Below, one piece after another: positions 6,245 through 24,906 of a stretch of 64,000 nucleotides of DNA; the stretch's first letter is position 1; each line of letters begins with the position of its first letter. This stretch comes from an uncultured virus (IMG/VR IMGVR_UViG_3300047539_000012). Its lineage: Duplodnaviria > Heunggongvirae > Uroviricota > Caudoviricetes. Where the stretch lies: the IMG/VR virus record IMGVR_UViG_3300047539_000012, one strand, 5' to 3'. The position numbers and the translations under genes were made by a program. The notes under the pieces were generated by a model. It saw only the letters and a list, made by a program, of their open reading frames with translations. It was not told the origin of the DNA and did no database searches.

Positions 6245-6913
6245 TCATACTCTAAACTTCCTTCCCTTGTCCTGCAATCCCGACTTCTTCAATCCAGACG
6301 ATATTACCACGCCCGCCTGCTTTTGTGCAAGGAAATTCTCAAAATCTTTTTTCAACACGGGATTCAGGTGCTGGCCCGCCATGACGTTGTCTAGCATGAT
6401 CTTCTCTTTCAGTTTGATTGCGATGATATGCTTGCAATCTGTGCGAGGCACGAACGTAGTCCACGACTTGCACGAACACTGCCAGTTCACACTCCAGCCC
6501 GTGTTCTGGCCGTCACCGGGCTTACGCTTGCCCGAGATGATGTACGGCGACTTTGCCGTGCCCTGATATGCCCACTGATCTGTCCACAGGGGCGAACTTC
6601 CCTTCGGTAGTTTGCGAATCTCGCCTTGTTTCATCGGAGCCTCCGGTACTTCCTGTGACATGTCCGGTACTTCCTGTGACGGGGGCCACACGTATGCTTT
6701 GCAGTACGACAAAATTGCTTGAGCGTTCTTGATTTTAAAGAACGTGCCCACCGTTACAATCCGTGAGAAGTGCCTGCCACACATCGTATCCGTGCCATGG
6801 AACCATCGGCGGTCGTACGCATCTGCCCCCTGAGATACAACGTAGTCCAGATACTCTTGATAACTGCCCGCGAGCACACAGATTGGATAATTTTTGTATG
6901 TCTCGTCACTCAC
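6245..6913 (-). CDS. SWIM Zn-finger protein, C-terminal GRKFRV
   Basis: WQCSCKSW...DCKHI = CxCx(n)CxH. Confidence 0.7.
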   Translation of the reverse strand: MSDETYKNYPICVLAGSYQEYLDYVVSQGADAYDRRWFHGTDTMCGRHFSRIVTVGTFFKIKNAQAILSYCKAYVWPPSQEVPDMSQEVPEAPMKQGEIRKLPKGSSPLWTDQWAYQGTAKSPYIISGKRKPGDGQNTGWSVNWQCSCKSWTTFVPRTDCKHIIAIKLKEKIMLDNVMAGQHLNPVLKKDFENFLAQKQAGVVISSGLKKSGLQDKGRKFRV

Positions 6914-7133
6914 TGCGAAACCTCCGACCGACCTTCGATCTCATTCCGTGGTCTGGTACAAGGGAACGCCTTGCCGTCAATCTATAACGGCTATAATTCG
7001 ACGACTGCGGAACCACTACCGAGAAAACTTCCCAGCCTTCAGCCGCCCACTCGTTGCACGTTTTCTCCACCCCGTCGCCAGCGGGCCCCGCATCCACCAA
7101 TCGTGAACGGAACTCGAACTCTTGTTTATTCAC
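6906..7133 (-). CDS. DUF4177-like small protein, C-terminal GRRFRSE
   Basis: CNEWAAEGWEVFSVV motif. Confidence 0.6.
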   Translation of the reverse strand: MNKQEFEFRSRLVDAGPAGDGVEKTCNEWAAEGWEVFSVVVPQSSNYSRYRLTARRSLVPDHGMRSKVGRRFRSE

Positions 7134-7698
7134 TGCGAAACCTCCTGCCGTCTGACACCTTTATCGGAGTCATCAATTGCACGGGTTTTTCCATCTTGCG
7201 CCCGCCCGCGAAAATATCTTTCTCTATATCGCCCGCGATATCGGGCCCGTGGTACTCCACAGGTCGTATCACGCCAAGGAACGACTGGTCGCCCGCTGCA
7301 GCGAACGTGTCAATCCGCAATACTCCCCAGTCTGGGCACCACCGCAGCCGCACCGTTTTCAGCGGGTCTTCGTTGACTTCGTTGGCAACCTTGAGAATCT
7401 TCGCCAGCGTAGCACCGTTGACTGTGACTGTGCAAGTCTGCTCGGACGGCGCGGGGATTAGGTTCTCCACGTTCGGCACGAGATGGTCGGGTGTAGTCTT
7501 TGCGTCGATCTCGTCACCGTTAGCCAGCCGCAGATACGGCGGCCACGTCTCGGACGGATTCGGCAGCGACACCCTGCACCAGTAGGACGGCTGTACGATA
7601 GTCGAGCCCCGCCCGCTGACGTGAAGGTGTCGCAGCCGGGGATTGTCTCTCGATAGCAACTTCTCCAGCCCGAGATTCTTTTTGTTCAGTTTGAACAT
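7126..7698 (-). CDS. hypothetical protein (possible sliding-clamp-like fold), C-terminal GRRFRSE
   Basis: VNGATLAKILK...LRID...GVIRPV pattern recalls beta-clamp C-terminal domains; GGGGAG RBS. Confidence 0.5.
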   Translation of the reverse strand: MFKLNKKNLGLEKLLSRDNPRLRHLHVSGRGSTIVQPSYWCRVSLPNPSETWPPYLRLANGDEIDAKTTPDHLVPNVENLIPAPSEQTCTVTVNGATLAKILKVANEVNEDPLKTVRLRWCPDWGVLRIDTFAAAGDQSFLGVIRPVEYHGPDIAGDIEKDIFAGGRKMEKPVQLMTPIKVSDGRRFRSE

Positions 7699-9226
7699 TT
7701 AGTCTCCCCGTTGCAGACGCTCTAGGTTTGCTACGTCCTCGGCTGTATATCCTCTACAGGTGCGGCAGCGAGAACACACAACATCATAGCAATGGAACTC
7801 GTTCCAGCGGTGCCCGAGGATACGGCAAAGCAGTTTTGCTATCTTGAATTCTGATATTCGCATTTATGCCCCCCGTTAACTCAGGTTGAATATCCATGCT
7901 GCCAGAACTGACAGTGTCGCAGTCGCCCCCGCCAAGCATATCGCCCAGACGATCATCGTCCAGAAAAGTTCGGAGATTAGTTCTCCTAGCCTCATGCGTT
8001 CCCCGCTCGGATGCCGAAAATCCGTTCGATGATTTCCATGAATTTATAGAGGTCAGTTTCCTGCCTCAGGATGTAGACGATGCCATCTGCGAAGTACCAT
8101 TCTGCTGTCATGAGAATACCTCCACGTAAACTACGAATTCAACCCCGTCCGTGAACCGATCCTTGTAAATTTCGGGTGACGGGCCCTCGGTTGTGACGTG
8201 GTCATTATCAACATACTCCACGCCCTGAATAAAAGCAAGTGCCTCTGCCTCAGTCTGAAATGCCTCTCGGTGTCTCATCGTTTCCTCCCGTGCTCCAGCG
8301 CCTCGATGCGTGCCCGCAGTTCGACAATCTCTGAAGAGTAGCGGGACTTTATCTGCATCTTGAGGCTCCAACGCAATTCTTTAATCTGCCTCTCTGCCGC
8401 CGCCAGTTGCGCCTGCCCCGTCTTTGGGCACATAGGCTTGTGCTGCCCGCCATCGGGCAGAAACGCATTGCACTCTGGGCAGTAATTCATGTCTTTCATA
8501 AAAATGCCTCCCATGTAATCCGTATCGCTCGTTCCAGCACCGTTATGCTGGACTTTGCGTTTGCAGCCCCGTACAGCGAGGCTATTTTAGGAGTGCCCTG
8601 AGGGACACCCCCGCCTAGATCGTCGATTGTGGCCAGCGGCTGATTGAAATCCGGCCCTTCTAGCCCGCAGACGGCACAGCGGAGCGTTCCGCCGTGCATT
8701 TCGACCCTGATGCGACCGCACCTTGGGCACGGCATACCACCCCCTTGTTATGACGTAACAGGTTCGTAGTTCTTGCACCGCTCGTCATACTTGTCGCGGC
8801 AGCCGTCACCTGTGAGCGCAGCGTGCCAGCACGGTTGACTTTCGGTATGGTTGATGTCGGATGCGTGCTCCGCTTCCGCGTGCCCGCATTTACATTTCGG
8901 TTTCATTCGGTTCCCGCTTTCTGGCAGTCTTCACAGAGCAACAGTTCTGCCTGTCGGTTCTTGTCGTTCGGTTTAGCGCCGGGAGTCTTCCAATAAAGAT
9001 TGACCCCGCACCGCAGTGGGACGCCCACGACTGTGTGCGCCCCGTTGTATGCCTTCCCGCAGCCCGTTACTTTTGCCATTTGTCCTCCAGTGATTGACTT
9101 GCACGGCCTTTGGCTTCCCTAGGCTATACGCGGACTGCACTAGGTTTGTCTCCGCATGTACAGCAATTGACCAAAGGCCGTGCAATGCGATGACTGCAAT
9201 GGTTTTCTTCATAGGTATCTCCTTAG

Positions 9227-9949
9227 TCAGTAATTCTCTGCTTCTGTCCGAGTAAGGAAGAAGTGAATACCGCCACCGCACTCGGTCCAACGGTCTTCGT
9301 TCCATTTATCGCAACGCACGATTTTACCTACGCGATATTCTGTAGCGCTATCGTGTTGGCTTATGCCTACTTCTGTACCAAACACTTCTAGCACCTTTAC
9401 ATATTCTGCTCGGCATTTGCGTCCTGTGGCGTTGCTACGCTTGGCATTTCTGCCAATGATCACCTTTACTATTACATTGTATTTGCACTTCTTCCACCCA
9501 ACAAATTGCCCTTGTTCTGGAACAATAGACAATTCACAGGATGTAAGCACAGGTATTTCCTTAGCGCCCCTCAGGTCCGCACGCCTCAGGTTCGCGTCAC
9601 TCAGGTTCGCGTCACTCAGGTTCGCGCTACTCAGGTTCGCGCCCCTCAGGTTCGCGCCCCTCAGGTTCGCGTCACTCAGGTTCGCGCCACTCAGGTTCGC
9701 GCCACTCAGGTTCGCGTCACTCAGGTTCGCGTCACTCAGGTTCGCGCCACTCAGGTTCGCGCCACTCAGGTTCGCGCTACTCAGGTTCGCGCTACTCAGG
9801 TTCGCGCCCCTCAGGTCCGCGCCCCTCAGGTTCGCGCCCCTCAGGTCCGCGCCACCCTTAATAGCAAGCAAAACAACATCCTTAAAAGATTCAGCATCTG
9901 CCTTGAAAATGCTTTGCCCATTCCAGCGGTTTTTAATGGTGTATTCCAT
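9227..9949 (-). CDS. pentapeptide-repeat protein with DUF5758-like C-terminal domain
   Basis: about 19 A(N/D)L(S/R)x repeats; [13 protein letters not shown]...[14 protein letters not shown]. Confidence 0.9.
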
Positions 9950-10543
9950 GTTATTTTCTCCTTGTACTTATCCTTCGGGTTATAGGTATCTCCATGTAAT
10001 CAGGCTGAGCACTGACAGCCCCGCATTGACCAGGGAATCCAAGCATTCCGCAATGGGTCGCTTGGCAAAACTACGCTTGAATCTACGATAATGGTTCTTT
10101 CCAATCCAAAGTAAAGTCATGGTTTCTCCTTTGATTTCAATAGTTTACGGTGAAGCAATACGCACAGCATTGCCGACGGGCACAGTCTCGACATCGACCA
10201 TGACGAAGTTATCCGCCACGGGTTCCCACACCGCTTTAATATTTGTCACCGTGTTCTCCTCTCTAATTCAGATTCAGGCTCGCCCTGATCTGCCGTTCGT
10301 AATCGGCCAATGGTCGGTCCATCGATGATCGGTTCTGGCTCGTCGATGGTATTGGTGCCAGAGGCAAAAAAATTAGCACAGCGGTTAGCATGGCCAGTGT
10401 CGCCCACGCCACTCCGTACCACTCCAGAAACTGAATCAGAAAATGCATTGAACCCCCCACCTAATGAATTTATCACAAGAGCCCCGCCGACTGTCAATCC
10501 TAAAATTACAAAGCACCAGTCGATGAGGCAGACGATAAAATTT

Positions 10544-10891
10544 TCAAGCATGGGCATCCCCCTTGTCGATTCGTGCCTGCTGTTCTGCCCGCACCTTGCC
10601 GTCGATGCACGCCTGCTGTTCTGCCCGCACCGTGCCTTCGGTGCAGCCAAACATCGCAGCCTCAACTACGGCAGCCGCAGCCCGCACGGTCATGTGCTCG
10701 GGGGCGTTGACCAGAGCCGTGATTCGCAAAGCGTACTCAATCAGTTGTTCATCGGTCATTGCACGCCCGTTCATCCCCTGTGCCCCATCCCATCGCTTCC
10801 GCAGTTGCGTCATGGCGCGACGCAAGATGACGGCGGGATCACGTTTTAACTTCTGTTCATCAGTCATTTGCATCCTTTCTGTGACATCCAC
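10544..10891 (-). CDS. hypothetical protein
   Basis: internal tandem duplication G.VRAEQQA.ID. Confidence 0.55.
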   Translation of the reverse strand: MDVTERMQMTDEQKLKRDPAVILRRAMTQLRKRWDGAQGMNGRAMTDEQLIEYALRITALVNAPEHMTVRAAAAVVEAAMFGCTEGTVRAEQQACIDGKVRAEQQARIDKGDAHA

Positions 10892-11340
10892 GTCAGGCCG
10901 CCACGAAGGATGGTCATCTTCTTGGTCTGCCAGTAGTAGACTGTGAGCCCTCGACTCGATGCGGCATAGATGTCGAAGTGGTCTTTGTCTGCCCAGCCCG
11001 TGTCACCCAGCCCGTTGCCCGCGATGTTATTGCTGGGTGTGCTCGGATAAGCACCGCTGTTGTTCGGGTGAATGTGAAACAGTGCGAACGTCGTATTGTA
11101 GACGTACACCGTCTGCTTGTCTTTCTCATTCGTGTGCGGCATAATGTCGATAGAATAGAAGCCGTCCGCACCGCTCACTATGAACGTCGCCTCTATGCCG
11201 GTTGTGCCGTTGCCCGATTCCTGCCAGATAGTTTTCAGGGACGTTATAACGTCCGGCTGGCAGTACAGCGGAGCGGTCTGGCCGTGGAGGATATTCGCCA
11301 TCGAGAATATCCAGAGCAGTACCACGATTACTTTTTTCAT
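10864..11340 (-). CDS. secreted protein with JAB/MPN-like motif
   Basis: signal peptide; E...FHIHP.....PS....GD. Confidence 0.55.
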   Translation of the reverse strand: MKKVIVVLLWIFSMANILHGQTAPLYCQPDVITSLKTIWQESGNGTTGIEATFIVSGADGFYSIDIMPHTNEKDKQTVYVYNTTFALFHIHPNNSGAYPSTPSNNIAGNGLGDTGWADKDHFDIYAASSRGLTVYYWQTKKMTILRGGLTWMSQKGCK

Positions 11341-11765
11341 TTCGCCCCCCGTTGCAGAGCAAAGTCATTCGCAGCCGCATACGAGTGTGCAACCGACTCG
11401 CCGCCCATGATTACGTGGCCAGCGATTCGCAGTACACGGTTGTGCGAGCGTTCAAACCTGTATGAGACGTAAGCCTCTCCCGCAGATATAGCGAACATCG
11501 GCAGCGTGGACACGACGGTTGGGTGCTTGCCGTATATCTGTGATGTCCCACGAGGGAACCCCATTTCGGTGAGCCCGCAATTGCAGCGGGTATCCATGAC
11601 GGTTGCGATATAGTCGGCAGACGTGGACGCCCCGAGAGCCACAGCCTCGACTTTGAACGCGGGTGTGATCTCCTGACCATGGGCGTACGTCACCGCAAGC
11701 GCCAGCATCAGAGACGCAAAAAATACGGTGAGAATCCTGTACATCAACTTGGTTCGCATTGTCAC
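11337..11765 (-). CDS. membrane protein
   Basis: signal peptide plus hydrophobic helices; GAGGAG RBS. Confidence 0.6.
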   Translation of the reverse strand: MTMRTKLMYRILTVFFASLMLALAVTYAHGQEITPAFKVEAVALGASTSADYIATVMDTRCNCGLTEMGFPRGTSQIYGKHPTVVSTLPMFAISAGEAYVSYRFERSHNRVLRIAGHVIMGGESVAHSYAAANDFALQRGAK

Positions 11766-11880
11766 AGTGTGTTCTCCTCAGGCTTGATTAGCCCGTACAG
11801 CACTCAGACATTTTCGGAATGAATGCTGTACGGGGCAATCAAGAACTTGCCCCCGCCTGCCACATAGGTGCATGACCGAA

Positions 11881-12081
11881 TCAGCGAGTAATGCACTTCG
11901 TCTTGCTCGGAACTTTGTTGTACTCCGCTTTGTTCGTGGAGTGGGTTGACTTGCCCAGCGTAGCGGCGAACGCCTCTTGCACCGCAGCGCAGCCTTTGCC
12001 TTCGTAGCCGTCAGTATCGACGGTCAGGTTGCCAGTCTCTGGGTCGATCTCGATGGTGATAATTTTATTGCAGTTACCCAC
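11881..12081 (-). CDS. DUF2997-like protein
   Basis: IEID..G.......GYEGKGC......LG.......K.EY pattern; in operon with DUF1257 and the AAA ATPase. Confidence 0.7.
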   Translation of the reverse strand: MGNCNKIITIEIDPETGNLTVDTDGYEGKGCAAVQEAFAATLGKSTHSTNKAEYNKVPSKTKCITR

Positions 12082-12363
12082 TCCAAATTATCTACCGTAC
12101 AATTCTTTTTGTCAAGGTCTTTATGGTTTACTTGAGGAAGATTTAAAGGGTTGGGAATGAACGCTCTTGCAACCAAAACATGAATCGGGGGAGCATATCC
12201 ACGCCCATTAACTGAGACATGCAGGTATCCTCTAACAACATTGGGCTTAAGAACTTTACCCACTTTTGTGGAACGATAGAATGTAAGTCGCTTAACTCGG
12301 CCCATGTTTGACACAGCGTAGTCAGGGAACTGCGGTATGGTTTTCCAGAGTTCCGTCTTGTTC
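12070..12363 (-). pseudogene. NUMOD4-HNH homing endonuclease fragment
   Basis: ELWKTIPQFPDYAVSNMGRVK (NUMOD4) and HVLVARAFIPNP.NLPQVNHKDLDK.N..V.NLEWVT (HNH); no in-frame start before NUMOD4; AT-richer than flanks. Confidence 0.75.
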
Positions 12364-12368
12364 GCTCA

Positions 12369-12779
12369 TTACGCCCCCTTCCGGTCTTGGAACTTGTACT
12401 GGATTTTCCCATTATGGAGAGTCTTGCCAAGATAGCGAAACCCTTTTTTCTTGGCAACTTTCAGTGCGCCACGTTCACCGTACGCGCACTTGAGGCCGAC
12501 TTGCCACTTCGCATTGTGCTTGCCTTGGTCGTAATCGGAAACGATCATGCTGTAAGAGCCGTTCTCGTTTCGTAGGAACCCAAGGTCATTGGCAGAGGGG
12601 CCAATGTTCTTGCGGCGTACGATGATGTGCGCTTTCTGCTGTCGCAAATCACCGTGGTAGCCGTAAAGGTTCTGTGCAATTTCGTTGACTTCGACATCGA
12701 TATACCCGACATCGTTGAGAGCCTGCACTAAGCACTCCGCATCGCGGTACTCAGTCTCGATTGTGTTGTACTTGCTCAT
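12369..12779 (-). CDS. DUF1257-like protein
   Basis: MS.Y..IET.....L..AL...G; L.GY.GD.R...AHIIVRR....SANDLGF......Y..IVSDYD. Confidence 0.75.
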   Translation of the reverse strand: MSKYNTIETEYRDAECLVQALNDVGYIDVEVNEIAQNLYGYHGDLRQQKAHIIVRRKNIGPSANDLGFLRNENGSYSMIVSDYDQGKHNAKWQVGLKCAYGERGALKVAKKKGFRYLGKTLHNGKIQYKFQDRKGA

Positions 12780-13117
12780 TTCGCCTCCAGAAAAAACTCG
12801 TTCAGAAACTGAATCTCATACTCGATTGCAACCCGCCGGTCACAAAAGGCAAGCGGCAGAATCGGGCCGCCCACTGGTTTCGTATTCACTCGCCACAGGC
12901 ACGACCATGTCCGCGTCCAGCCCGCCAGACGGCTGTCGTCTGAGACCAGCATACGGATGACCGTGAATGCCTGCCGCAGAAAGAAGTTCGCGGGCTCGAC
13001 ATGGCTCGCACGTTTCGTGGTCACCGTGCCCAGCCCCTTGAACGCTGCAGCCATCGGACTATCGAGGCAGAGTATGTCGCCTGTCTCGGTGTCCATCGTG
13101 ATCGTGATCTCGTCCAT
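12776..13117 (-). CDS. conserved hypothetical protein of the AAA/DUF1257 operon
   Basis: LG....RASHVEP...W....P.GGP.L..F..R..A...E. Confidence 0.6.
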   Translation of the reverse strand: MDEITITMDTETGDILCLDSPMAAAFKGLGTVTTKRASHVEPANFFLRQAFTVIRMLVSDDSRLAGWTRTWSCLWRVNTKPVGGPILPLAFCDRRVAIEYEIQFLNEFFLEAK

Positions 13118-13277
13118 TGGTATCCCCCGATTAGTATTTGGTGAACGGGCGTATGGTGTTTCCCCGTCCAGCGAAGTCAGCAGCGTCCCTGTTATTCTGC
13201 GTACGCACCCAGCCGGTAGCCCTGTTCACCCACCCCTCGCTTTGCAAACTTGGTTCGCCTGTGCAGCAACGTAAAGT

Positions 13278-13307
13278 ACTATACAGCACCGGAGGAGGGG
13301 CTGTCAA
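13278..13307 (-). promoter_or_regulatory. sigma70-type promoter
   Basis: TTGACA-18-TATAGT. Confidence 0.6.
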
Positions 13308-13308
13308 C

Positions 13309-14247
13309 CTAGTTCTCAGTCCTGAACTTCCGGCCTGAAGTGAGTACCAGAGCCTTCAGCATAGGCTTGACCGCTTCGAGTTCAGAAGCGACTTTCACCT
13401 TGAGGCTGTCGGACTCCCGTAGCTTGTCGATAGAAACTCCGCTCATGATCTTCTTGAGCGTTTCGACATGCTGCTGGTATTCAACGTCATCGGTCACGTT
13501 CTTGAGGCTGTACGTGTCGATGTACTCCTGCAGCCTGTCAAGTTGTCCATCGAGACGTTTACGCTTGCCCGCTTCCGGGCGCAGAACGTCGAACAACGCC
13601 TCGACCATCTTTGCACCGGCCTCGCGCATTGCAGCACGCATATCCTCGGCAGCCTGTGCGATATAACCAGCCTGCTTGCGTTCCTCACGTTCTCGGATAT
13701 TCGGGTCCGCGATGCTGATCGTGCCTGTGGTCTGGATATCCATGTATCCGTAACGGAACGTGAACCCAGAACGCACAGCCGTCGGGTGATCGTAATCTTT
13801 CCGATTGAACTGGTCACCGAGGGCCACGCGAGTCAGAGCAAAATCGCTCTCGTACTCTGCGATATACTTCGCCATGAACGCCTCGACTAGCGCGGGCCGT
13901 CGAATCGTTTCATATGCGACTAGCACACGGTCAACGATTGGGATCATGCCGTCTGCGATAATCAAGACGCCCTCTTGACCAGTGAAACGGTTTGACTTGA
14001 GTTCGACGTACCGCTTCATCTTCGCATCTTGCGAACGTATCTCTTCGAGTTCGGGCGAGTCGATCAACTTCTTGTTATGGCGTAACTGACTCGGGTCTGC
14101 GTTCGTATTGGCCGTGACGCTGATCTGTCGCAGGTTGCCAATGCCCATGTGAAAGTGGGTATAGACGAGACGTGCGCCACGCATCATCTTACTAATGTCA
14201 ATGCCGACCATTGCGGTTTTATCGAATGCTTGCGAGGGTGCTGCCAT
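13309..14247 (-). CDS. DUF3150-like helical protein, C-terminal GRKFRTEN
   Basis: KKLID...LGDQFN..DY...F; coiled-coil character; GGAG RBS. Confidence 0.6.
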   Translation of the reverse strand: MAAPSQAFDKTAMVGIDISKMMRGARLVYTHFHMGIGNLRQISVTANTNADPSQLRHNKKLIDSPELEEIRSQDAKMKRYVELKSNRFTGQEGVLIIADGMIPIVDRVLVAYETIRRPALVEAFMAKYIAEYESDFALTRVALGDQFNRKDYDHPTAVRSGFTFRYGYMDIQTTGTISIADPNIREREERKQAGYIAQAAEDMRAAMREAGAKMVEALFDVLRPEAGKRKRLDGQLDRLQEYIDTYSLKNVTDDVEYQQHVETLKKIMSGVSIDKLRESDSLKVKVASELEAVKPMLKALVLTSGRKFRTEN

Positions 14248-14323: not shown

Positions 14324-15880
14324 TTACTCCGTACGAAACTTGCGGCCCTCGACAATTTTCGTCGTGGGTTCGTGTTTGATTGGTGACGGCTCGTAGCGGT
14401 AGATGCCGCCTTTCGATGCCGACAGGAAGCGACCGGAGGCGGCACTGCGAATGCCTTCGATGACTTCGTGATGTGACTCATGGAGAGGCACGATATACTG
14501 TGACGCCTCCATGTAGGAGCACGCGAACGCCTGAGCCTTCGCAGCGCAGTTGTCGATGTCGCGGCCCGTCCAGCCTACCATTGCGGGTAGTTCAGAGTTG
14601 GCATCGAGACCATAGGCCGCCAGTTTGATTTTTACAATGCCCGCCTTTTCTTCGTCAGTGGGCATGTCGAAAAACCAAACGCCTCCGAGATTGAATCTTG
14701 AAATTAACTCGGGCGGCAGGCCGTCCAACTTGTTCGCTGTTGCTATCAGCCAGATATGACCATCGCCGATAGCGTTCAGGCAGCGGTTAGCGTTCCGCAT
14801 ATGTCTCGCGGACTTGCCAACGTGCTCATGCTCCATCGCGGAGATGTCATAGTTAAGGACCGGCTTGCCGTACTCGCCAGCGAGACAGTACGGGGACCAC
14901 GACTTGCTTGTGCCAGAGACGCCAAGGTTCAGCGTGCATGTCACATGGTTGTCGTTAATCCAGTTTAGAAACTCGCCCATCAAATTGCCTTTCGTACCAG
15001 ATGAGTCGGTTTCGTTGCCAGCGAATTGCCGCTGTATTTCATCCATGCGGACAATCACCGTCGGTTGTTTCGGGCCAGCCATTAGTCGATGACCAGCCTG
15101 TAGCCATGCATCGCAGCCGCTCATGTTCTTGAGTGTCTCGACTGTCGCGTGATACGTGAGCCCCGGGTTCTGGGTCACGATCTCCCGCTTACGCCCCCAC
15201 AGTGCATAAACGTCAAGGACGCCGGTGACACCGTCAAGGCAGAATGCAACGGCCTGATCGATAGGAAACGGCGGCAGGCCGATAGATGCGTCGGTCGCAC
15301 GTCTCAGGGTTTCGGCGTCGGGCCCCTTCTTGCAGGCAGAGAATTTTTTCTCTTGCCCAGCGTAGGCGAATGCGTTCTTTACGATGTCCTCGATCTCACT
15401 GCGGGTTGGCAGTGGAACTTCGAGTACGAGCACATCCTGTCCGATCTCGGACGGCAGGTCATCGCCCACGCCTTCGAGTAGTACCAGCATATTGCCGCTG
15501 GCCTTATAGTCATCCCGAAGGTTCGCAATGCCCTGAATGATTCGCTTGTCCTCGTCCCAAGCAAGGTGAGCGTTATGGATGAATGCCACAACGTCTGCGG
15601 AGGCCGCCGCGAGCACACCGAGAGCCACGGGCAACGAGACGGTCTCAGCCGCCTCAGTACCCGAAGGCTGCAGCATCTCAGCGATTGCAGCACAGCCCTT
15701 ATCGTTATAGCCCTTCAGGCCGTTGATGCTATCCCACGATATGAGCGGAGTCGATTCTTCTTTCGGCCCGAATGCACTGGCAATAGCCTTCACCGCCGCG
15801 AGTGCATCGTGGGTGCGGATAACAACCTGCGGCGTCGATATCATTCTCGCCGCCATGAACTGCTCAATGTATGTCTTCAC
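14324..15880 (-). CDS. Ycf46-like AAA+ ATPase with permuted Walker A/B order, C-terminal GRKFRTE
   Basis: W....GL N-terminal domain; VRMDEI (Walker B), GVSGTSKS (Walker A), IATAN..LPPEL..RF...FF.D.P, GWTGRDI. Confidence 0.85.
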   Translation of the reverse strand: MKTYIEQFMAARMISTPQVVIRTHDALAAVKAIASAFGPKEESTPLISWDSINGLKGYNDKGCAAIAEMLQPSGTEAAETVSLPVALGVLAAASADVVAFIHNAHLAWDEDKRIIQGIANLRDDYKASGNMLVLLEGVGDDLPSEIGQDVLVLEVPLPTRSEIEDIVKNAFAYAGQEKKFSACKKGPDAETLRRATDASIGLPPFPIDQAVAFCLDGVTGVLDVYALWGRKREIVTQNPGLTYHATVETLKNMSGCDAWLQAGHRLMAGPKQPTVIVRMDEIQRQFAGNETDSSGTKGNLMGEFLNWINDNHVTCTLNLGVSGTSKSWSPYCLAGEYGKPVLNYDISAMEHEHVGKSARHMRNANRCLNAIGDGHIWLIATANKLDGLPPELISRFNLGGVWFFDMPTDEEKAGIVKIKLAAYGLDANSELPAMVGWTGRDIDNCAAKAQAFACSYMEASQYIVPLHESHHEVIEGIRSAASGRFLSASKGGIYRYEPSPIKHEPTTKIVEGRKFRTE

Positions 15881-16239
15881 GATTCCCTCCGGTTGTACTT
15901 GCGAAGTAAACGGTTAGCGGTTTCGACTGCGGTACGAGCATACAGGGGGTGCCGTACTTCAGTCAAGCGTTCAGGTTCCTGTACTCGCCGCCACACGCTC
16001 ACGCGATAGCGGTCAAGAGCCCAAGTGATCTCGACACGATACTTGCCGCTGTCGGTTCTCAGGGCAACGACTTGCTGCCATTCGATGCCGTCCAGCATCC
16101 ACGTATCGAACTTTCTCAGCCGCAGATACTCGATAGAGCCCTGAGGGTCGCGGTAGCGGTCAGCGTCGTGCTTGGTTGGTGGGTTCAGGTTAGCGAACGT
16201 ACCCGGCTTGCATTCACAGTTTGGATTCGTGCAATTCAT
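15877..16239 (-). CDS. hypothetical protein
   Basis: GAGGAG RBS; coupled to the ATPase gene. Confidence 0.6.
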   Translation of the reverse strand: MNCTNPNCECKPGTFANLNPPTKHDADRYRDPQGSIEYLRLRKFDTWMLDGIEWQQVVALRTDSGKYRVEITWALDRYRVSVWRRVQEPERLTEVRHPLYARTAVETANRLLRKYNRRES

Positions 16240-16375: not shown

Positions 16376-17832
16376 TCAGCCATTTTCCCGGCAATGTTCT
16401 ATCCGAGATAAATCCGTTTCTTCGATTCGCTTTGGACGATACGCTGCAAAATCGAATATGTAATTGACGGCATCGTTGACTTCAGTTGGGCGGTGCTCAC
16501 GAACCGCAAACCAACGTGACATCAACTCATGACCAGCGGCGTCTGCCTCTTCTTTAGTTGCGAAGACACAGGCGTTCGTGGTCCACGTGTTAGATGAATC
16601 TGCGATGACTTCAGACTTCCATGCCATGATAAATTACCTCAGCATGGCCGCACAGTTCGCGGCCCGCTTGTTGCGGACAGGTGGGACAGCCAATACAGTG
16701 ACCAGCCTGCAATCGAGTTCAGGGTTGGACTTGGACGGCAGGAACCTCTCTGCCGTGCGAGTCTTGAACCCGTGAGCCCTGAGGGTCACCGTCAAGGTAA
16801 AGGCAGCCAACAGGCCCGCCTCAGTGTGAGGAAACGTGAACTTCTCAGGCATACAGCCCCCTATTCGTAGTAGACACCCCCAAGGGCACCGACCACGCGA
16901 GTAAGACCAAGGTCTTTCATGGCCCGATTGCGTGCCCGACGACGGTTGTTATTACGGCGTAACAACTCGTCTTTAGCAATTTTCGCAACGACGGTATTGC
17001 AGTGCTGGTTGTGGAGATACGCTGCAGCGTGGGCTAGTGTGTCCCACGCAGAGCCTACACCGACGCCAGCGTCAAAGGTTTGTACCGCACATTCCCGCAG
17101 TATCTTGATTGCTGCAGGGATGTCAGCATCGATTTGATTGTGAACGGTCTTCGTCGTGACACCGTCAGCAAAAAGATACGTGGTAGTTTTCATGACTAGT
17201 TCTCCTCATCGATAAATTGTAATTCGGCAACTGTCATATCGGTGACTTTCCAGTCACTGAATGCCTTAGTGCAATGGTGTTTGGTTTGGAAGATATGCGA
17301 GACACGCCGCATAAGCGCAACGAGCACCTCTTCATGAAGTGCTATCGATACGCCCGACGGGTAAGTCAACGGGTGAGTCAGCGGATTCTCCAGACGTGAT
17401 TGACGTTGGCGGTTGATGCGGTTCATGCGAACACGCGACAGTGAGTTGTTCCAACGATGGGCAGCCTTGCCCGTGAACGAGATTGAATTGCGTGACATTT
17501 GATTTTTCTCCTATTGATTCAGACCTTGGGGAAGGGCCGATTGATTAGCGTACGGCTTCTATCTGAGCAATTCTCAGCCGCAGATACTCGATGTACTCAG
17601 ACTGCGACAACAGGCTATTGGTGCAGCAGAGCCCACCAAACTTGCCGTCTATCGCTGCGAAGTGAGCATGTCCCATCGTGTTTGCTTTGGGGCAGCCCGG
17701 AAGATTGACAACCTTGACGCGGTCGCCCACGGTCAAGCGGCCCATCTCGACTGCGATAGGCGGATTGCAGCGGTCAATCATGACCGGCACGTAATGGTAA
17801 GTTGCGTTCACGCGAACTTTTTTGTTAGCCAT
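16376..17832 (-). other. cluster of small early hypothetical genes (16376-16627, 16634-16852, 16861-17193, 17196-17498, 17545-17832)
   Basis: tightly packed ORFs with SD sites; identical AGGAGAAAAATCAAATG start regions at two of the genes. Confidence 0.6.
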
Positions 17833-18273
17833 TTGATTTTTCTCCTGATGAATTCGCACTGCAGTCAGCCCCGGTCGTTTGCCTTAGGCTCGTTCCCGTC
17901 GTCGCATAAAGGTTGGCTGCAGTACACGTTATCAGAATTTGTTTGCTGTCGTTTATCTCACCGATTTGTCAGTGAGCTACTTGGAGGTCAGGATGTTCTC
18001 CAGCCGTTACGGGTTCAGCCCTTGCACTCTCACACCGTACGCTTGTGGCGTTTCTCGAAGTTCGCAGCCCCTGACTTCTGCCTGCCGTTCTAAGGACTAA
18101 CAGGCTGTCGCGTTGGATTGCTTATTCTGGTATGAGGCGGATTAGGTCACCGTCTCTCGGTCTTTTATTGTGCCCCGTGGCCTTCACTCCCGGCCACCCC
18201 GACTTGCTTTTTTCTGAGGCTGATTTTCAACTTTGCTTATCGGCTGAGTGTCTTGCACTTCCGACCTGAATCA

Positions 18274-18302
18274 ATAATACCTTATGAGGATATAACTGTC
18301 AA
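18274..18302 (-). promoter_or_regulatory. sigma70-type early promoter
   Basis: TTGACA-17-TATTAT. Confidence 0.75.
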
Positions 18303-18330
18303 TAAGAATCGACAGAGTGTTTTCAACGAG

Positions 18331-20213
18331 TTACAGACTTTCTTCAGGCGTATCGAGTCCGACTCGTTTGTTTCTCTTGCGTTCAAATACGGGCATAGCG
18401 TCGCAGACTTCTGCCACGGGCAGGCTGAGGCTTGCAGCCACGTCGCGGACATCTCGCGGTTGGCTGTTAGCCCACAGGCATAGGCGGCCATCGTACGCCG
18501 TCACCGTGCCTACCAGTGCCTGAATGCGTTCAAGGATAGTCATAGTTTGGCCGCCTTATCGATGATAGCCTGTGTGCGGGCGATCTCGATGGATGTCCAC
18601 TGCACATGGTCGGTGGGGATGTCCGAGTCAAGCATGTCACGATACCGCCGCAACGCGGCCCGTACGATCATCGCTTCGGTGTCAGTCAATTCGATTGTCA
18701 CGGTTAGCCTCCAGTGATTTCAGATACAGTGCCTGATTCAGACTCAGCCACTGTTGCAACTTCGGGTACCAGTACATGAGCGTATCAGTCTCGGGCCTGC
18801 GTTCCTGTCGCGTCGCTGTCTTGCGTGTCACGGTTTCACCCCTTTCAACATGCATACTTCGCACATGCCCCACATGTCACGGGTATGCTTGCAGGTACAG
18901 ATGTCTTCTATCGCGGCGATCTCGCCGAGATACTGCCGATAAGGTTTCGGTGCCTTGCGTCTCGCGGCACACTTGTCGGTTGCTTCCACGGTTGCGATTA
19001 ACCGGCCCTCAGGAGCCCATACCAGAAGATATGTCATCGCGTCACCCTCCGTTTTAATTGTTCTCGCCTTGCAGCGACTTTACGTTTAACATCAAGCGGC
19101 GAAACGTCTTTGCACCCGTGCGACATAAAAGACACGCACACCCAGAGTAAAAATATGATGGAGAAGATCATCGCGTCACCCCCAGAGCATTCATCGCCTC
19201 TTCGTCCGAGAGGATGATATCCGTATCGCAGTTGATGTAAGCATGGCGGCCACTGCTGGCCTGCCACATATACTGTAGGCGAAAGCCAGAGCGAGTCATG
19301 AACGGGACTTCAGTGCCGCCACATGCGGGCGTCCAGTTGCCTTGGTTCTGACGGTGTGTACGTTCCTGAATCATTTCATCGATAGTCATTATTTCACCTC
19401 ACTGCAGGGTTCTACGAACTTGCCAGCGTTTACGACATAGTCCTGAATGCCGCACATGGTGCCCGTGGTCAGGTCAACTCGTACAAGCTGGTGTACTACG
19501 TATGTTTCACTTCCATCCCCAACTTCTCGGGGAAGGTCACGAACCTCGTATTGATGCGAGCAACCCGTAAACAACGTGGTGAGAAGGATTGCGAGTGCGA
19601 CTGCGGCGTTCTGTAGTTTGTTCTTCATGGTGATACCATTGTCGTGCCAGAGCCCGACGTTGTCAAGAGCACCGAAGTGCTAAAATCCGCCATTGTTAAC
19701 AGCCTTGCAGGCAGCATAGCGAGCATATCCAGCCGCCAATTCTGCCGCCGCTTTGGCCTCGCGGGCCTCGACTATGCTACTGGCTTCAAACTTGTATGCT
19801 GCAATCACCCGTGCCCGAGTGCCTGCGGTGCTGGGGTGATCGTGGATTACACCATCGACAACGCCGATAGCATGACGGCTCTTGATGACGATGAAACGGC
19901 CCGAGTTCAGTTTGCTCATTGTCGCGGCCAGCGTGGGTTTAATCCAGCCCCCAGTGCGATAGTCGGCACGCCCGTAGGCATCAACTTGAGTGACGCGATA
20001 TCCGAATATGACTTTTTTCTCACGTGCCCACGTGAGCAACTGGACCGACATATACGTGCCCTTGCGAGCCTGACGGCCTTGTGCTGCCATGAATGTATGT
20101 GCATCGCGGTATGGCACGCCCGTGGCGACCATCAAAGCCTTGACTGTGCAGTCCTTGGTTTCATTCTCGAAGCCTGCATCCCGTTGCGGTAGAGTGTTGC
20201 TGTAGTTCGTCAT
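18331..20213 (-). other. cluster of small immediate-early genes, including a lipoprotein (19389-19628) and a 177 aa ORF (19680-20213)
   Basis: coupled ORFs; FTGC lipobox in 19389-19628; DCTVKAL..ATG..Y..AH motif in 19680-20213. Confidence 0.6.
19629..19666 (-). promoter_or_regulatory. sigma70 promoter with very short leader
   Basis: TTGACA-17-GACAAT-ggtatcacc-ATG. Confidence 0.7.
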
Positions 20214-20251
20214 GGTGATACCATGATATGGCAGTCCATGACTGGTGTCAA
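20214..20251 (-). promoter_or_regulatory. sigma70 promoter with very short leader
   Basis: TTGACA-17-TATCAT-ggtatcacc-ATG. Confidence 0.75.
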
Positions 20252-21043
20252 CGGCACGAAGGTGTTACGCCGTACCACACTAAAGTGCAAATCGGGCCAG
20301 ACCAGCCTATCAATAATCGTAAGCACGATAGCCTGCAGCCTGTCAAGGTGCCCAATGGGCTAGGCGAATGGATAGCGAAAGCCTGTGTCGGATCATAACA
20401 CACGTGCTTCGCCGTTTGTTCGCCCTACATGTTGTCACATCGTAATATGTGTGAAATCGTGCCACCAACCCCGGTGCATAACTAGACAACAGAGTAACCA
20501 AGGAGAGAGCAGGTGACCAACGTGTGGGGTGTGAGGCAGGTCAGGTTACTACGTAAGGCATTCGCCTATCGCACGCATCGTGCCACCGTCGGCCACGGGT
20601 TCAGGCCGTCTGCACCAAAACACTATATTGGTGCAAGCCACCACAGCACCTGCTAACCCCTTTGCAATCCTACATTTAGAACTACATTTGGCCACACTGC
20701 ATCCAGATCAGCCCAAGTGATTGATTCGTAACACGTTAGTCTCGATGATGAGGGGGCGAAGACAGAGCGAAGTGAGTGAGGGTAAGTCGTTGATAACATA
20801 GGGGGTCAGTACTTAGCCTCGACTGGCGGGTGCGGTCACCCCAGCCGTGTCGCTGCCCGACAGCCCAGCTCGGCCTAGCCTCGCACAACGGACACAACGG
20901 ACATATTTTGGGTCCCATCGCCGCAGGGGGCCCACCCCCATGTCCGGATATATGGCCGTTATATTTTTTTTTTTTGTAAATTTTTGGAAATAGGGTGGTT
21001 AGCGCAACGCGCAGGTGGGTTGGTTACTTCGCCGTTCGTTCGC

Positions 21044-21847
21044 CTAGTTGTGGTAGGACCCGCTCAGGAGGAGGTTACTACCTGTAGCGGTACGCATCGC
21101 TGTCCGTTTGGTCCGTGGGTGCCGCCAGACGGGTTTGTTACGTTCCCACTTGAAGTCGGGCACATGGCCAAGGTACACAGGTTCCACCCGCCACTCCCGT
21201 TCGTGTGCCCGCACCGCAGAGTCTCCGTCCTTCAGGCGTCTTTGGATTCGGTTGGCGGCCCGCCTTGCCGTGGAGTATCGAGCAGGGTGGCGCACGTCGA
21301 GCATCCAGTCGGTCCAGCCGTCGTTGAACGGGGAACTGGTCCGTCTGCGGGTTTGTACCTCATAACAGAAGTTCTCCTGTGGGAAGGAGTCGGGCCCGCA
21401 GTTGGGGAATTCCGTCTGGAGGGGCGGGAGGGCGGCAAGGGCTGCCAGCCGCTGCTGGCTGGCATACTGAGTCATCCAGTCGTCTGCCATCTTCTCTATA
21501 CCCTTGGCCATCTCGGGCTCAAACAGGTTGGGCTTGACCTGTTTGAACGTAACAAAGTCTTCGGGCTTGGCATACTCGGCTTCGCCGGTTCCGGCTACCA
21601 GTTTGTCTATCGCGGCTATGTCCGCTGGCGATACGGCCCCGGGGGTGGCCGCCGATTGCGGCAGCGGTCCAGTGACGTCTTTCAGGGCCAGCCATTCACG
21701 GGCGGTTTTTCGCTTGCTGACTTCCGTGCCGCCGTAGTGACAGGGGAGTTGGTTCGAGAGCGAAGGACGGTAAGCCATCCCGAAGTTGAACATTGTCCAT
21801 ACCCCCGACGGATACGATTTGGAGCGGTTTGTGATATATCCCTTCAT
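21044..21847 (-). CDS. hypothetical protein
   Basis: long ORF; ATGA overlap with 21844-22143. Confidence 0.5.
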   Translation of the reverse strand: MKGYITNRSKSYPSGVWTMFNFGMAYRPSLSNQLPCHYGGTEVSKRKTAREWLALKDVTGPLPQSAATPGAVSPADIAAIDKLVAGTGEAEYAKPEDFVTFKQVKPNLFEPEMAKGIEKMADDWMTQYASQQRLAALAALPPLQTEFPNCGPDSFPQENFCYEVQTRRRTSSPFNDGWTDWMLDVRHPARYSTARRAANRIQRRLKDGDSAVRAHEREWRVEPVYLGHVPDFKWERNKPVWRHPRTKRTAMRTATGSNLLLSGSYHN

Positions 21848-23280
21848 GGGAGATTGTGCCGAATCATGTTCGGCAGAGAGTCCGAGTAGACTTCCCAGTA
21901 GTCGAACCCGCACGTCCGCTTGTCGGGCAGGCACGGCCAAGGGACGGCCCAGCCGTTGGTAAGTATTTCGTAGACTTTGTCCACCGCAGTCTCGGGAACC
22001 CCATTTCCATCTTCGTTCCCTGTCGGCGGAATGATGGCGACGAACACCCGAGGCGAGTAGGCCTCCGGATGTGCCTCGAACTTGCCTTCGGCTGCGATGA
22101 CGATCTCCATATCAACCTTTACGTTTGGAGGGGTTGGTGCCATAGTTTTCTCCTTCGTACCAATCAGTACCAGACGATACTAAAATTGCGGAGGTTATCG
22201 TGTGTATTCTCCGCATGCTACTCCGACATCACCCAAGGCACCCGGCACTGAGGACACACCGACATTTCCTTGAGCCACGCCGGGTCCTTGAAAGACTCGG
22301 GCACACCAAGCCCGCGATAGCCACAGGTGCCCACGTTTGGGCACATGTACGTGATCCAGTCGGTTCGGTCGGAACCCGACATCGGCAGGACGAAGAATGC
22401 AGCGCCCGCCAATGGCCAGCCTAGTCTCAGGTATGCGTCAGCTTCTCTCATCATGCCCCCTTGTGTGCAATCGTCGAAGACTGGCAGAAGTCCGCAATCT
22501 CGGTCAAGCACCCGTGGTCAAGCACAGTCGGATGAGTGGCGGGGAAGTAGCAATACTTCCGCCACGGCCCGTACCAACTAACCATCCCGAGAGTGAAGGT
22601 CGCAGCGGCGACGAACCAAGTCCGCGTCTTGCCGCTGTCTGAGTCGGGCCCTTGAATGAAAGATATGTAGCTCATCGGTTACCCCGAACCCACGTGAGTT
22701 CGCTGTTGAGGCATTCGACAGTGCGCTTCGTCGTACGGAGTTCGCTGTTGAGTTGGGCGACTTCGTTCTTGAACCCGTCGGCTTGAAGGTAGAGGGATTT
22801 AATCGTCAACCGTTCTTCGGAGACGACGGCTTCGAGTTCGTCAATCCAGCGGTCGCGTACCTCAAGTTCCCCCTTGAGTGTGATCGTCAGGGTATAATAC
22901 TCTTCAGCCGACTTGTAGTTGTTCTCCGCTGCCTCTTCGGCCCGCTTCAACTGTTCCTGCAGGTCGTCAATGAAAGCGTTCGTCGTTTCGACGTCATCAA
23001 GCTCAGTGGATTCGGCGGGGACGTTCCCATCGCAGCACGGGATGTCAAGCGGGATGTCGAGAGGCTTAATGATATCGTCCGGGTATATCCACCCGTTCGC
23101 AATCAGCATGTCCTTTATCGTCGAGTAGTCCACGGAGTACGTGGGCAAGTCTTTATCGACCTCAGTCGAGTCGCACTCCTTTTCGTTGTCTTCTAGGCAC
23201 CACTTGCAAACGAACGGGGCCACCACGGTGCTAGTCTCCACGTCAACGACATCGGTACAGCGTTCACATTCGATCTTCAT
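21844..23280 (-). other. hypothetical genes (21844-22143, 22218-about 22454, 22451-22675, 22672-23280 Zn-ribbon plus coiled coil)
   Basis: coupled ORFs with SD sites; CxxC motifs. Confidence 0.55.
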
Positions 23281-23720
23281 GGTATGTTTCTCCTCATTCT
23301 CAGGCCGTCAACATGTGGCCCGTACAGACCCCGCATCACCGAGACTACCTTGTACCCGTTCTTGAGATAGAGCATCTGAGCGACGGTGTTGTCGATCATG
23401 ACGTTCAACTCAATCACCTGATGGTGGTGTCGGGCGTAGTACCCGTACATATCATCCAGCAACTGCGACCCTATCCCCCGATCCCGATAGTTCGGGCTGA
23501 CAGCAATCTGCCACAGGTAGAGCCCAACGTGTTGCCGCTCCATGATGGCGTAGGCGACCACCCTTCCGGAGCCGCCGTCCTTTGTGAAGACGTCTCCCTT
23601 ACGGAACATTCGGGCGAAGTCACCCGGCGGCGGTTGCTCAATTCCTTTGAAGCACTCTGCGCTCATCAACGCTAAAGTCTCCAGCATTGTATCCGTCTTC
23701 TCAACATCAGTTAGTTTCAC
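23277..23720 (-). CDS. GNAT acetyltransferase (RimI-like)
   Basis: IAVSPNYRDRGIGSQLL; LNV..DN..A..LY.KNGY. Confidence 0.9.
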   Translation of the reverse strand: MKLTDVEKTDTMLETLALMSAECFKGIEQPPPGDFARMFRKGDVFTKDGGSGRVVAYAIMERQHVGLYLWQIAVSPNYRDRGIGSQLLDDMYGYYARHHHQVIELNVMIDNTVAQMLYLKNGYKVVSVMRGLYGPHVDGLRMRRNIP

Positions 23721-24177
23721 GGAACCGCCTCCCGTCCTTGGGCCGCCAAGGTTTCATCTTCGGTGTCTCAAGCGGAACTTCAATCCACTTCGTCTTCGGT
23801 ATCGCGCCCTCGGGGGTTTTGTAATAAGTCTCGTATGCATTCTTGAAAGTCTCCTTGAAAATCTTGTGTGCGGGCACTGACTTCGCCTTACCAACCACCC
23901 CCTCCAGATCGGTGTTCGGGTGACTGTGCAGCCCCACGAACTTCTGCATCGCCCAGTCTACCATCTCCGCAGACTCGGGTATATGGCACGTCAACGCATG
24001 ATCGCACTTGTCACAGTATATCCGACACCGCCCGAACGGGTCAACCGCCGTTCCGTAAGTAAATTCCACCTGCAACCACGGGGCTGCTGTCTTCAGCCAC
24101 TGGCGAACGTACATCTCAATGCTAGGCGGGCTCGCTGGCACTTGGAACCTCCTCCACGAAGTACCAGACGGGGTCAT
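23707..24177 (-). CDS. hypothetical Zn-binding protein, C-terminal GRRFRETN
   Basis: CDKC..H.H. Confidence 0.55.
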   Translation of the reverse strand: MTPSGTSWRRFQVPASPPSIEMYVRQWLKTAAPWLQVEFTYGTAVDPFGRCRIYCDKCDHALTCHIPESAEMVDWAMQKFVGLHSHPNTDLEGVVGKAKSVPAHKIFKETFKNAYETYYKTPEGAIPKTKWIEVPLETPKMKPWRPKDGRRFRETN

Positions 24178-24885: not shown

Positions 24886-24906
24886 TGGAGTCTCCTGCAA
24901 AAATGT

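Follow-up and report, generated by a model that had tools for sequence, protein, structure and literature searches.

Six early proteins of an uncultured SU10-like soil phage, among them a p97/Cdc48-like AAA ATPase, share a conserved C-terminal G-R-[KR]-F-R tag

The window analysed here is a stretch of 64,000 nucleotides from the uncultured virus record IMGVR_UViG_3300047539_000012 (IMG/VR; Caudoviricetes), and our subject is a short peptide, G-R-[KR]-F-R, with which six otherwise dissimilar open reading frames (ORFs) of its minus strand end. We found that this C-terminal tag is real, that it is conserved in related phages, and that it co-occurs strictly with one clade of a tandem AAA ATPase, which itself carries it. 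The six tagged proteins, with their sizes in amino acids (aa), are as follows:

14324..15880, minus strand: family A, tandem (degenerate D1 plus active D2) p97/Cdc48-like AAA ATPase, 518 aa, ending EGRKFRTE
13309..14247, minus strand: family B, DUF3150-family protein, 312 aa, ending SGRKFRTEN
7126..7698, minus strand: family C, possibly sliding-clamp-like protein, 190 aa, ending DGRRFRSE
6245..6913, minus strand: family D, SWIM-type zinc-finger protein, 222 aa, ending KGRKFRV
23707..24177, minus strand: family E, protein without annotation, 156 aa, conserved N-domain plus variable linker, ending DGRRFRETN
6906..7133, minus strand: family F, protein without annotation, 75 aa, ending VGRRFRSE

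A six-frame translation scan of the window returned seven matches to G-R-[KR]-F-R. Six of them lie one to three residues before the stops of minus-strand ORFs of 75 to 518 aa (end coordinates 6245, 6906, 7126, 13309, 14324 and 23707), exactly where an earlier, sequence-only reading of this DNA had placed them. The seventh, at 37108 on the plus strand, falls inside a 19-codon stop-to-stop frame and is noise. The scan found no match on the plus-strand (late) genes of the window, as the same reading had remarked, and the carriers are confined to the early arm. The comparison with shuffled controls proposed alongside it was run on the window ORFs: the broader pattern GR[KR][FMILVYW]R occurred within the last 10 residues of 6 of the 323 ORFs of at least 60 aa. 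When the tails were shuffled 2000 times, the average was 0.059 and the highest count 2, and the expectation from the internal rate was 0.11. These results demonstrate that the C-terminal tag of the six ORFs is genuine and far above chance.

We assessed conservation in a set of ten viral records and 80 metagenome loci around AAA homologues, with protein families defined by BLAST clustering. Throughout a large clade of soil phages of about 95 kilobases (kb), the tag is retained in orthologues of all six families, while the bodies of the tagged families diverge to 25-40% identity; the doubt voiced with the sequence-only reading, that homologues might lack the motif, did not materialise. The co-occurrence with the AAA operon, which that reading had wanted examined, proved to be a clean split by AAA identity. 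Six viral records (G002-G006 and G010), whose AAA is 52-76% identical to that of the window, carry the C-terminal pattern on two to six ORFs each, and metagenome loci with an AAA of at least 45% identity have the tag on the AAA and DUF3150 proteins, and on families C-F where the flanks reach that far; the only exceptions are loci cut before the end of the AAA. By contrast, the pattern is on no ORF of G007, G008 and G011, whose AAA is about 35% identical, and these records together with 23 loci with an AAA of at most 37% identity hold no strict tag. The nearest viral record, G001, covers late genes only and has no tag. These findings indicate that the tag co-occurs strictly with one clade of the AAA, referred to here as clade 1; G007, G008, G011 and the low-identity loci form clade 2.

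Counted by family, tagged unique sequences numbered 43 strict plus 6 loose of 71 for the AAA (the other 22 being clade 2 or broken), 31 strict plus 1 loose of 42 for DUF3150 (the other 10 being clade 2), 9 of 9 for family C, 10 strict plus 2 loose of 12 for the SWIM-type family, and 3 strict plus 1 GRHFR variant of 4 for family F. In family E, all nine true homologues (116-310 aa) are tagged despite their changing linker length; eight further sequences of that cluster were dropped as late-protein relatives joined through a common zinc-ribbon segment. The same held in a large protein database, where R-[KRH]-h-R (h, hydrophobic) stood within the last 8 residues of 116 of 120 AAA homologues of 50-99% identity, at the C-terminal end in 77. 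Family C homologues from the database bore the strict tag in 63 of 72 cases, and the other nine comprised five GR[KR]FK, one GRSF and three fused or truncated sequences.

The logo of 104 unique tails was strongly position-specific. It had G at position -1 in 91%, followed by R (100%), K or R (99%), a hydrophobic residue (100%; F 68, M 17, I 16 and V 3 of the 104) and a final R (100%), and was preceded by hydrophobic residues at -6 (62%) and -4 (57%) and by T or S at -3 and -2. The final R is the end of the protein in 74 tails, and 30 are extended by 1-4 residues: the subclade of the window has 1-3 residues after the motif, and family C usually has G-x-G-E. The hydrophobic residue is uniform in G003 (I throughout, V in the AAA), which is not general, as elsewhere the AAA has M or I and its partners F. 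In G003, a 126-aa ORF directly after the AAA gene (L025:12454-12834, plus strand) ends VGGRKIPS and resembles a decayed or variant form of the GRKIR tag of that genome.

Clade 2 consists of phages that are otherwise unrelated and have only the cassette in common with clade 1. Their AAA and DUF3150 proteins have no GRKFR, but end in a common tail of another kind, R-x-[IFL]-x-h-[DE]-[DE], as in the AAA/DUF3150 pairs GGSRSIRIED/KPHRSIRLED and ARTISVED/NRCITFDEE; in clade 1, both proteins carry GRK[FIMV]R. Within G007, G008 and G011, tails of the clade 2 style are found only on cassette proteins, with one further cassette carrier in G007. A profile search with the AAA against 1.84 billion representatives at 50% identity recovered 14,525 proteins at E ≤ 0.001 and 2,965 at E ≤ 1e-30. 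Among the best 149 AAA representatives, R-x-hydrophobic stood within the last 12 aa in 121, versus 16-67 in seven upstream control windows, the value of 67 falling on a conserved GRF[LI]SAS motif. Since clade 2 has a different tail that is again common to AAA and DUF3150, and R-x-hydrophobic is found family-wide, G-R-[KR]-F-R is, as far as sequence comparison tells, this clade's spelling of a module-intrinsic tail typical of the whole AAA family. On the same grounds, the tail appears as an old property of that family which co-varies with the DUF3150 partner and was copied onto four further proteins in the clade of the window.

The sole relative that tblastn with the AAA found among GenBank phages is Tunturiibacter phage Tunturi_3 (36% identity), whose AAA ends GRIIR and whose DUF3150 homologue (hhalign E 1.7e-48) ends DRKFHLEGEEF. 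This homologue, at 12690-13649 of Tunturi_3 (L140), is gp96, annotated as 'HNH endonuclease'. The same phage has two proteins, gp110 and gp109 (6644-6999 region), with near-identical tails, KAAK[LI]ELTRRA.

The AAA protein matched Pfam only weakly (AAA, E 2e-4) and had no match in an NCBIfam scan. Its AlphaFold2 model has a predicted local distance difference test score (pLDDT) of 89. The best Foldseek matches of the model were p97, Cdc48, Rix7 and NVL D1D2 structures (E about 1e-11, about 580 aligned columns, template modelling (TM) scores 0.3-0.54), including N-terminally deleted Rix7 and p97 D1D2, and a PDB profile search gave weak Vps4-like, katanin and Rpt chains (E about 0.02). The first, D1-like domain has no Walker A motif. 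A p97-type N-domain is absent from the model, because the protein starts directly, from residue 1, with the D1-like alpha/beta domain. In the active domain, the coding order puts a Walker B-like strand with invariant D280-E281 (RMDEI) ahead of the Walker A loop G320-x-x-G-x-S-K326-S327; in the model, strand 275-279 precedes strand 314-320, an unusual order for an AAA core. Residues 504-518, the tail, are disordered (pLDDT < 50), and docking of the tail in cis was rejected as a candidate on this basis. The DUF3150 model (pLDDT 84, mixed helical) likewise has a disordered tail at residues 304-312 (pLDDT < 50), so that the disordered linker which the sequence-only reading usually saw before the motif was borne out for the two proteins modelled.

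The AAA and DUF3150 genes belong to a cassette with the genes of P113, DUF1257 and DUF2997. The six carriers had been pictured as free effectors, a view that needs correcting, as two of them, the AAA and the adjoining DUF3150 protein, are core proteins of this cassette. PF11348 (DUF3150) was matched by 7 of 34 family B members (best E 3.9e-11), the window's own copy being below threshold, and a Foldseek comparison of its model with PDB folds gave only generic helical bundles (E > 0.3). PDB profile searches for families B and C, DUF1257 and P113 returned nothing usable. The untagged proteins of the cassette, and the gene upstream of it, are:

12776..13117, minus strand: P113, 113 aa, untagged, with a DUF2997-like N-terminal hairpin and an invariant R-A-S-H-V-x-P
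12369..12779, minus strand: DUF1257 (Ycf35-family) protein, untagged (PF06868, E 5.3e-9)
11881..12081, minus strand: DUF2997 protein, 66 aa, untagged (PF11211, E 4.1e-6)
15877..16239, minus strand: Cys-rich protein, 120 aa, upstream of the AAA with a 4-nucleotide overlap, untagged, few homologues

The DUF2997 gene is thus the ORF at 11881-12081, and not the ORF adjoining DUF1257 to which it had been assigned earlier. P113 had no Pfam match; its hairpin reads I-T-I-T-x-D-x-x-G-D, its C-terminal helix A-E-x-x-F-L-N, and it has homologues in both clades. The DUF1257 and DUF2997 genes are separated by an HNH endonuclease ORF (12024-12314, minus strand; PF13392, E 3.5e-6), which runs into the start of the DUF2997 ORF. 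In G003 the pair stands side by side with no such ORF in between; the ORF is probably a homing-endonuclease insertion. Two bases after the DUF3150 stop there is a near-consensus sigma-70-like promoter (13278-13307, minus strand; TTGACA, 18 nucleotides, TATAGT, 11/12). Similar promoter-like sequences follow the orthologous DUF3150 stop in several relatives, and this promoter would drive P113-DUF1257-DUF2997 separately from the AAA and DUF3150 genes.

Peptide docking to the operon proteins had been suggested with the sequence-only reading, and we carried it out as a complex prediction. The complex comprised AAA residues 1-500, DUF1257 and DUF2997 as monomers, and the scored partner was the 40-aa tail, for which 70 aligned tails were supplied. 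The prediction scored 0.47 (runs 0.50, 0.46 and 0.47), whereas the best of three controls scored 0.00, and the result was graded as weak support; when the AAA alone was replaced, with the tail, DUF1257 and DUF2997 kept, the score was 0.00. The pLDDT of the partner was at least 46, and the runs agreed in at least 0% of contacts. In the calibration, 116 of 157 solved complexes reached the mark, as did 2 of 215 mismatched pairs, and the range of 0.60 or under held only 18 of the 157 solved complexes and both of the two passing mismatched pairs; a job of four chains with custom alignments is unlike the calibration set. As a lead of that grade, the prediction suggests the AAA body rather than DUF1257 or DUF2997 as the target on which the tail is placed. 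The earlier idea of a hub in the AAA/DUF1257/DUF2997 machine found partial support: a real tag is tied to this cassette, and the predicted placement, at the weak grade, points to the AAA body and away from DUF1257 and DUF2997.

We propose that the AAA machine itself reads the tail as an address peptide, with one receptor site most probably on the AAA hexamer body, and we regard the chances of this proposal as evenly balanced. The tail would then act in the manner of the short motifs by which p97, Vps4 and the proteasome receive their cofactors or substrates. The tag would sit on a flexible C-terminal linker after a short beta-strand-like stretch, and one common site on the hexamer body would read the peptide. 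In this way, the DUF3150 protein, the SWIM-type protein, the possibly clamp-like protein and the two proteins without annotation would be brought to the same ATPase, either as cofactors or as substrates for which the tail could be a remodelling handle. The six tails of the ATPase could compete for or occupy the same site, which would be a form of self-regulation. That there is a single receptor, that the AAA is this receptor, and what happens after binding are steps that we infer.

Several observations weigh against this proposal. A prediction of the weak-support grade is wrong more often than it is right, except where the guess already had good prior odds; the contacts differed among the three runs, and no interface was returned. 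The candidate receptors in the prediction were the AAA, DUF1257 and DUF2997. The AAA's own tail does not fold back onto the body in the monomer model, and the AAA has no separate p97-type N-domain, which in p97 is the binding place of the cofactor motifs. When the AAA body was scanned for charge switches and covariation with tail class (clade 1 versus clade 2, and tail class I versus class II in 147 representatives), the positions obtained were scattered and none survives multiple testing; residues 106, 130 and 350 were recurrently basic where the tail is acidic-ended, with a best p of 2.3e-4 in about 990 tests without phylogenetic correction. Finally, the hydrophobic tag residue is not strictly uniform within a genome, so the receptor site must tolerate F, M, I and V.

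In a more specific version, which we hold to be unlikely, the tail would serve as a genetically encoded 'extract me' handle, independent of ubiquitin, by which the Cdc48-like AAA of a module widespread in phages, plasmids and cyanobacteria pulls its bearers off DNA or out of complexes. The AAA would recognise the R-x-hydrophobic peptide, and candidate clients would be the clamp-like ring and the SWIM finger. The spelling of the tag would differ from one mobile element to the next, so that each segregase serves only the proteins of its own element. If true, prokaryotes would possess a tag-based counterpart to the ubiquitin-p97 segregase pathway, and the orphan ycf46/ycf35 gene set would have its first function.

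The tail might instead be a docking peptide for another receptor, namely DUF3150, P113, a DUF1257/DUF2997 assembly dependent on its oligomeric state or another phage protein such as one of the replisome, with the AAA as a client. We consider this quite unlikely. In its favour, DUF1257, DUF2997 and P113 have no tag and accompany the cassette as conserved members in both clades, and the prediction covered monomers of the AAA, DUF1257 and DUF2997. Moreover, the AAA is itself tagged, which is simplest if a third party is the hub. On the other side, tail placement fell to 0.00 after AAA replacement with DUF1257 and DUF2997 still present, which is again evidence of the weak grade, and clades 1 and 2 have no common genes beyond the cassette, which argues against a replisome or capsid receptor for a family-wide tail. 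A search for a clade-specific hub gene between the two clades returned only the cassette, and the comparison is uninformative because the cassette is all that they have in common.

Distinctly improbable in our view is that a host factor reads the tag, which might then be a C-terminal degron, or an adaptor-like tail, through which a host AAA+ protease sets the time at which early proteins are turned over. In favour of this are the position of all carriers in the early arm, downstream of sigma-70-like promoters, and the nature of the tail, a short basic-hydrophobic peptide at the C-terminal end of a disordered linker; bacterial C-terminal recognition signals include similar short basic-hydrophobic tails, such as the basic ClpX signals of MuA and SspB. 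However, the spelling follows the AAA clade with no obvious host split, soil phages with the clade 2 cassette have acidic-ended tails, and the tail is family-wide in this AAA. Furthermore, the motif of family C is usually followed by four more residues, which indicates that a free carboxylate right after the motif is not required.

Two other roles are very improbable. Loading of the carriers into the capsid for co-injection, with the tail as packaging signal, would suit a large podovirus that is SU10-like by portal and adaptor, and C-terminal cargo-loading peptides exist in HK97-fold compartments. Yet no late or structural gene is tagged, the tail travels with the AAA cassette into phages without common structural genes, and its predicted placement depends, at the weak grade, on the AAA. 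Equally slim is the chance of a generic basic patch for DNA, RNA or an anionic membrane, for which speak the net charge of +3, the one aromatic residue, and the presence of a SWIM finger and a possibly clamp-like protein among the carriers. Conservation in the 104 tails is position-specific, and the homologous tail of clade 2 is acidic-ended and unfit for the same electrostatic role, which excludes a generic basic nucleic-acid-binding or membrane-binding function.

The explanation with a next to negligible chance is that the motif is a by-product of overlapping ribosome-binding sites, in which a Shine-Dalgarno (SD) sequence GGAGG reads G-R-R. The tag codons of the window are:

14333..14347, minus strand: AAA, GGC CGC AAG TTT CGT, without SD-like core or overlapping downstream gene
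13321..13335, minus strand: DUF3150, GGC CGG AAG TTC AGG
7135..7149, minus strand: family C, GGC AGG AGG TTT CGC, doubling as SD of the next gene (GTG at 7133)
6251..6265, minus strand: family D, GGA AGG AAG TTT AGA, SD-like for the ATG at 6248
23719..23733, minus strand: family E, GGG AGG CGG TTC CGT, SD of the GNAT gene (GTG at 23720)
6915..6929, minus strand: family F, GGT CGG AGG TTT CGC, SD of the next gene (GTG at 6913)

As the sequence-only reading had observed, the codons differ between copies, including CGN/AGR arginine switches (for example, GGA AGG AAG TTT AGA versus GGC CGC AAG TTT CGT). The copies therefore have no DNA motif in common, and a DNA-level repeat was rejected as the source of the tag. 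An SD-like core was sought within the G-R-[KR] codons of 100 unique tag instances from the window and its relatives, and was present in 5/40 instances of family A, 4/29 of family B, 5/9 of family C, 8/10 of family D, 9/9 of family E and 2/3 of family F. The SD caveat raised earlier thus applies to families C-F (24/31 instances) and fails for the AAA and DUF3150 families (9/69). In families C-F, the stop overlaps the start of the next gene and the SD-like core lies 7-9 nucleotides before that start, and their arginine codons accordingly serve as the ribosome-binding site of the next gene. The conserved G-[EAV]-G-E that follows the motif in most family C tails, GEGE among them, is likewise encoded by purine-rich codons that form the SD of the overlapping next gene. 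In families A and B, no downstream gene overlaps, intergenic hairpins or a promoter-like site follow, and the codons are mostly CGN-AAG. Since the AAA and DUF3150 tags mostly have no SD core and no downstream overlap, the motif is selected at the protein level; in addition, an SD sequence leaves the F/M/I/V residue, the last R and the synonymous codon variation unexplained. The codon and overlap analysis thus rules out a ribosome-binding-site artefact as the sole cause. These results show that the selected unit is the peptide, and that purine-rich arginine codons are used secondarily as ribosome-binding sites.

The arrangement recalls several known systems. Partners of p97/Cdc48-class ATPases are recruited through short shared peptides: cofactors carry the SHP box, VIM or VBM motifs, and the C-terminal tail of p97 is bound by PUB and PUL domains. 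The phage system is alike in its tandem D1-D2 AAA, in the common short flexible peptide on unrelated partners, and in the C-terminal tail of the ATPase, but differs in the missing N-domain, the unrelated motif sequence, the same tail on ATPase and partners, and the lack of a ubiquitin system. HbYX/GQYL docking motifs stand at the C-termini of proteasome activators (PAN/Rpt; mycobacterial Mpa, Bpa/PafE and Cpa). There too, an AAA ring and unrelated proteins end in one peptide, and all dock to the same pockets; the phage tag, however, has no penultimate Tyr, and 30 of the 104 tails continue for 1-4 residues after the motif. No member of the proteasome, HslV or ClpP families came up when 55 plus 32 window proteins were scanned with Pfam.

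In Vps4, the MIT domain binds MIM motifs at the C-termini of ESCRT-III proteins, so that C-terminal peptides on several substrates address one classical-clade AAA, and remodelling follows. Unlike Vps4, the phage AAA model has no MIT-like helical domain, the tail is not a helix-forming MIM, and the carriers are not paralogues. Clamp-binding C-terminal peptides are known from T4 gp45 clients, the PIP box (Q-x-x-h-x-x-aromatic-aromatic) and the bacterial QL[SD]LF motif. Their likeness lies in many DNA-related proteins and an AAA+ loader subunit with one C-terminal peptide for a ring hub, and a possibly clamp-like protein is present here. In contrast, the 104-tail logo has no Q and no paired hydrophobic or aromatic residues, the clamp-like protein is itself tagged, and the phage AAA is p97-like and not of the clamp-loader type.

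The gene content recalls the Ycf46/Ycf35/DUF2997 set of cyanobacteria and plastids, which on mobile elements is accompanied by DUF3150, in that DUF1257, DUF2997 and DUF3150 stand beside an AAA, as confirmed here by Pfam; DUF1257 is the orphan plastid/cyanobacterial gene ycf35. We know of no function for the AAA/DUF1257/DUF2997(/DUF3150) set. Full-text literature searches (main texts) on DUF1257/DUF2997, on DUF3150/Ycf46 and on phage C-terminal docking motifs found no description of a common tail or of a function of the module. An excerpt of one study describes a duf2997-ycf35-fed7 gene cluster in cyanobacteria (PMC4284462), and a passage of another mentions Ycf35 and a DUF2997 protein as unknowns (bioRxiv 10.1101/2025.10.13.678797). 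Peptide-addressed AAA machines are already known as a kind; of this module, its tag and its set of clients, we know of no description.

The gene set is widespread, as seen from the number of AAA family proteins recovered by the profile search. A conserved, transferable address peptide of 5-10 residues offers a direct experimental handle on what the machine binds and how it acts, and would list its clients in each phage without further data than the genome. The tagged set, with its SWIM-type and possibly clamp-like members, points towards DNA transactions. Tunturi_3 is cultured, has a known host and carries the module with tails, which makes genetics possible.

Among the other tagged proteins, family C is sliding-clamp-like as a lead only: its structural look-alikes in the ESM Atlas, each of them flagged 'under the bar', belong to clusters of DNA polymerase III beta domains (TM 0.57-0.65), and PHROG 947 'DNA polymerase processivity factor' matched 1 of 9 members (E 0.003). 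Apart from this weak match in one member, Pfam, PHROGs and NCBIfam assigned no family to families C, E and F, and the ESM Atlas gave no lead for family E. In the family D alignment, W-x-C-x-C ... C-K-H-I is invariant, as are C146, C148, C160 and H162, so that the SWIM pattern C-x-C-x(n)-C-x-H is present; Pfam SWIM (PF04434) matches 2 of 12 members (best E 3.8e-4). The zinc-ribbon-like segment met in the family E cluster, of about 25 aa (C-x-H ... C-x-x-C-G), occurs at residues ~124-146 of a late-region protein of the window (50440-51132, plus strand). It is 68-87% identical to N-terminal parts of some relatives' tagged D/E proteins (for example, L025:17473-18669) and looks like a small shuffled module.

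Megablast of window positions 5000-25000 against GenBank phages gave no nucleotide match. The minus-strand (early) arm spans 1-31.2 kb and encodes a PrimPol/DUF3987 protein, a family A DNA polymerase, a phosphoesterase, a GNAT protein and the AAA cassette, with several near-consensus sigma-70-like promoters. The plus-strand arm encodes the terminase, an SU10-like portal and adaptor, and other late genes. It starts (32015-35353, plus strand) with a polysaccharide-biosynthesis epimerase/dehydratase (PF02719, E 5.5e-95), followed by two weak glycosyltransferase-like ORFs. In its structural region, two endonuclease VII-like genes are among the ORFs at 44980-45390, 47229-48539 and 48526-49101 (plus strand), and the same region (44980-49101) encodes a probable fibre or spike protein of 436 aa, in which an ice-binding-like domain was recognised (PF11999, E 5.3e-35). 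In the early arm, the ORFs at 9227-9949 and 3768-4301 (minus strand) include a pentapeptide-repeat protein with a DUF5758 C-domain and a short ORF of 177 aa of the tyrosine-integrase family.

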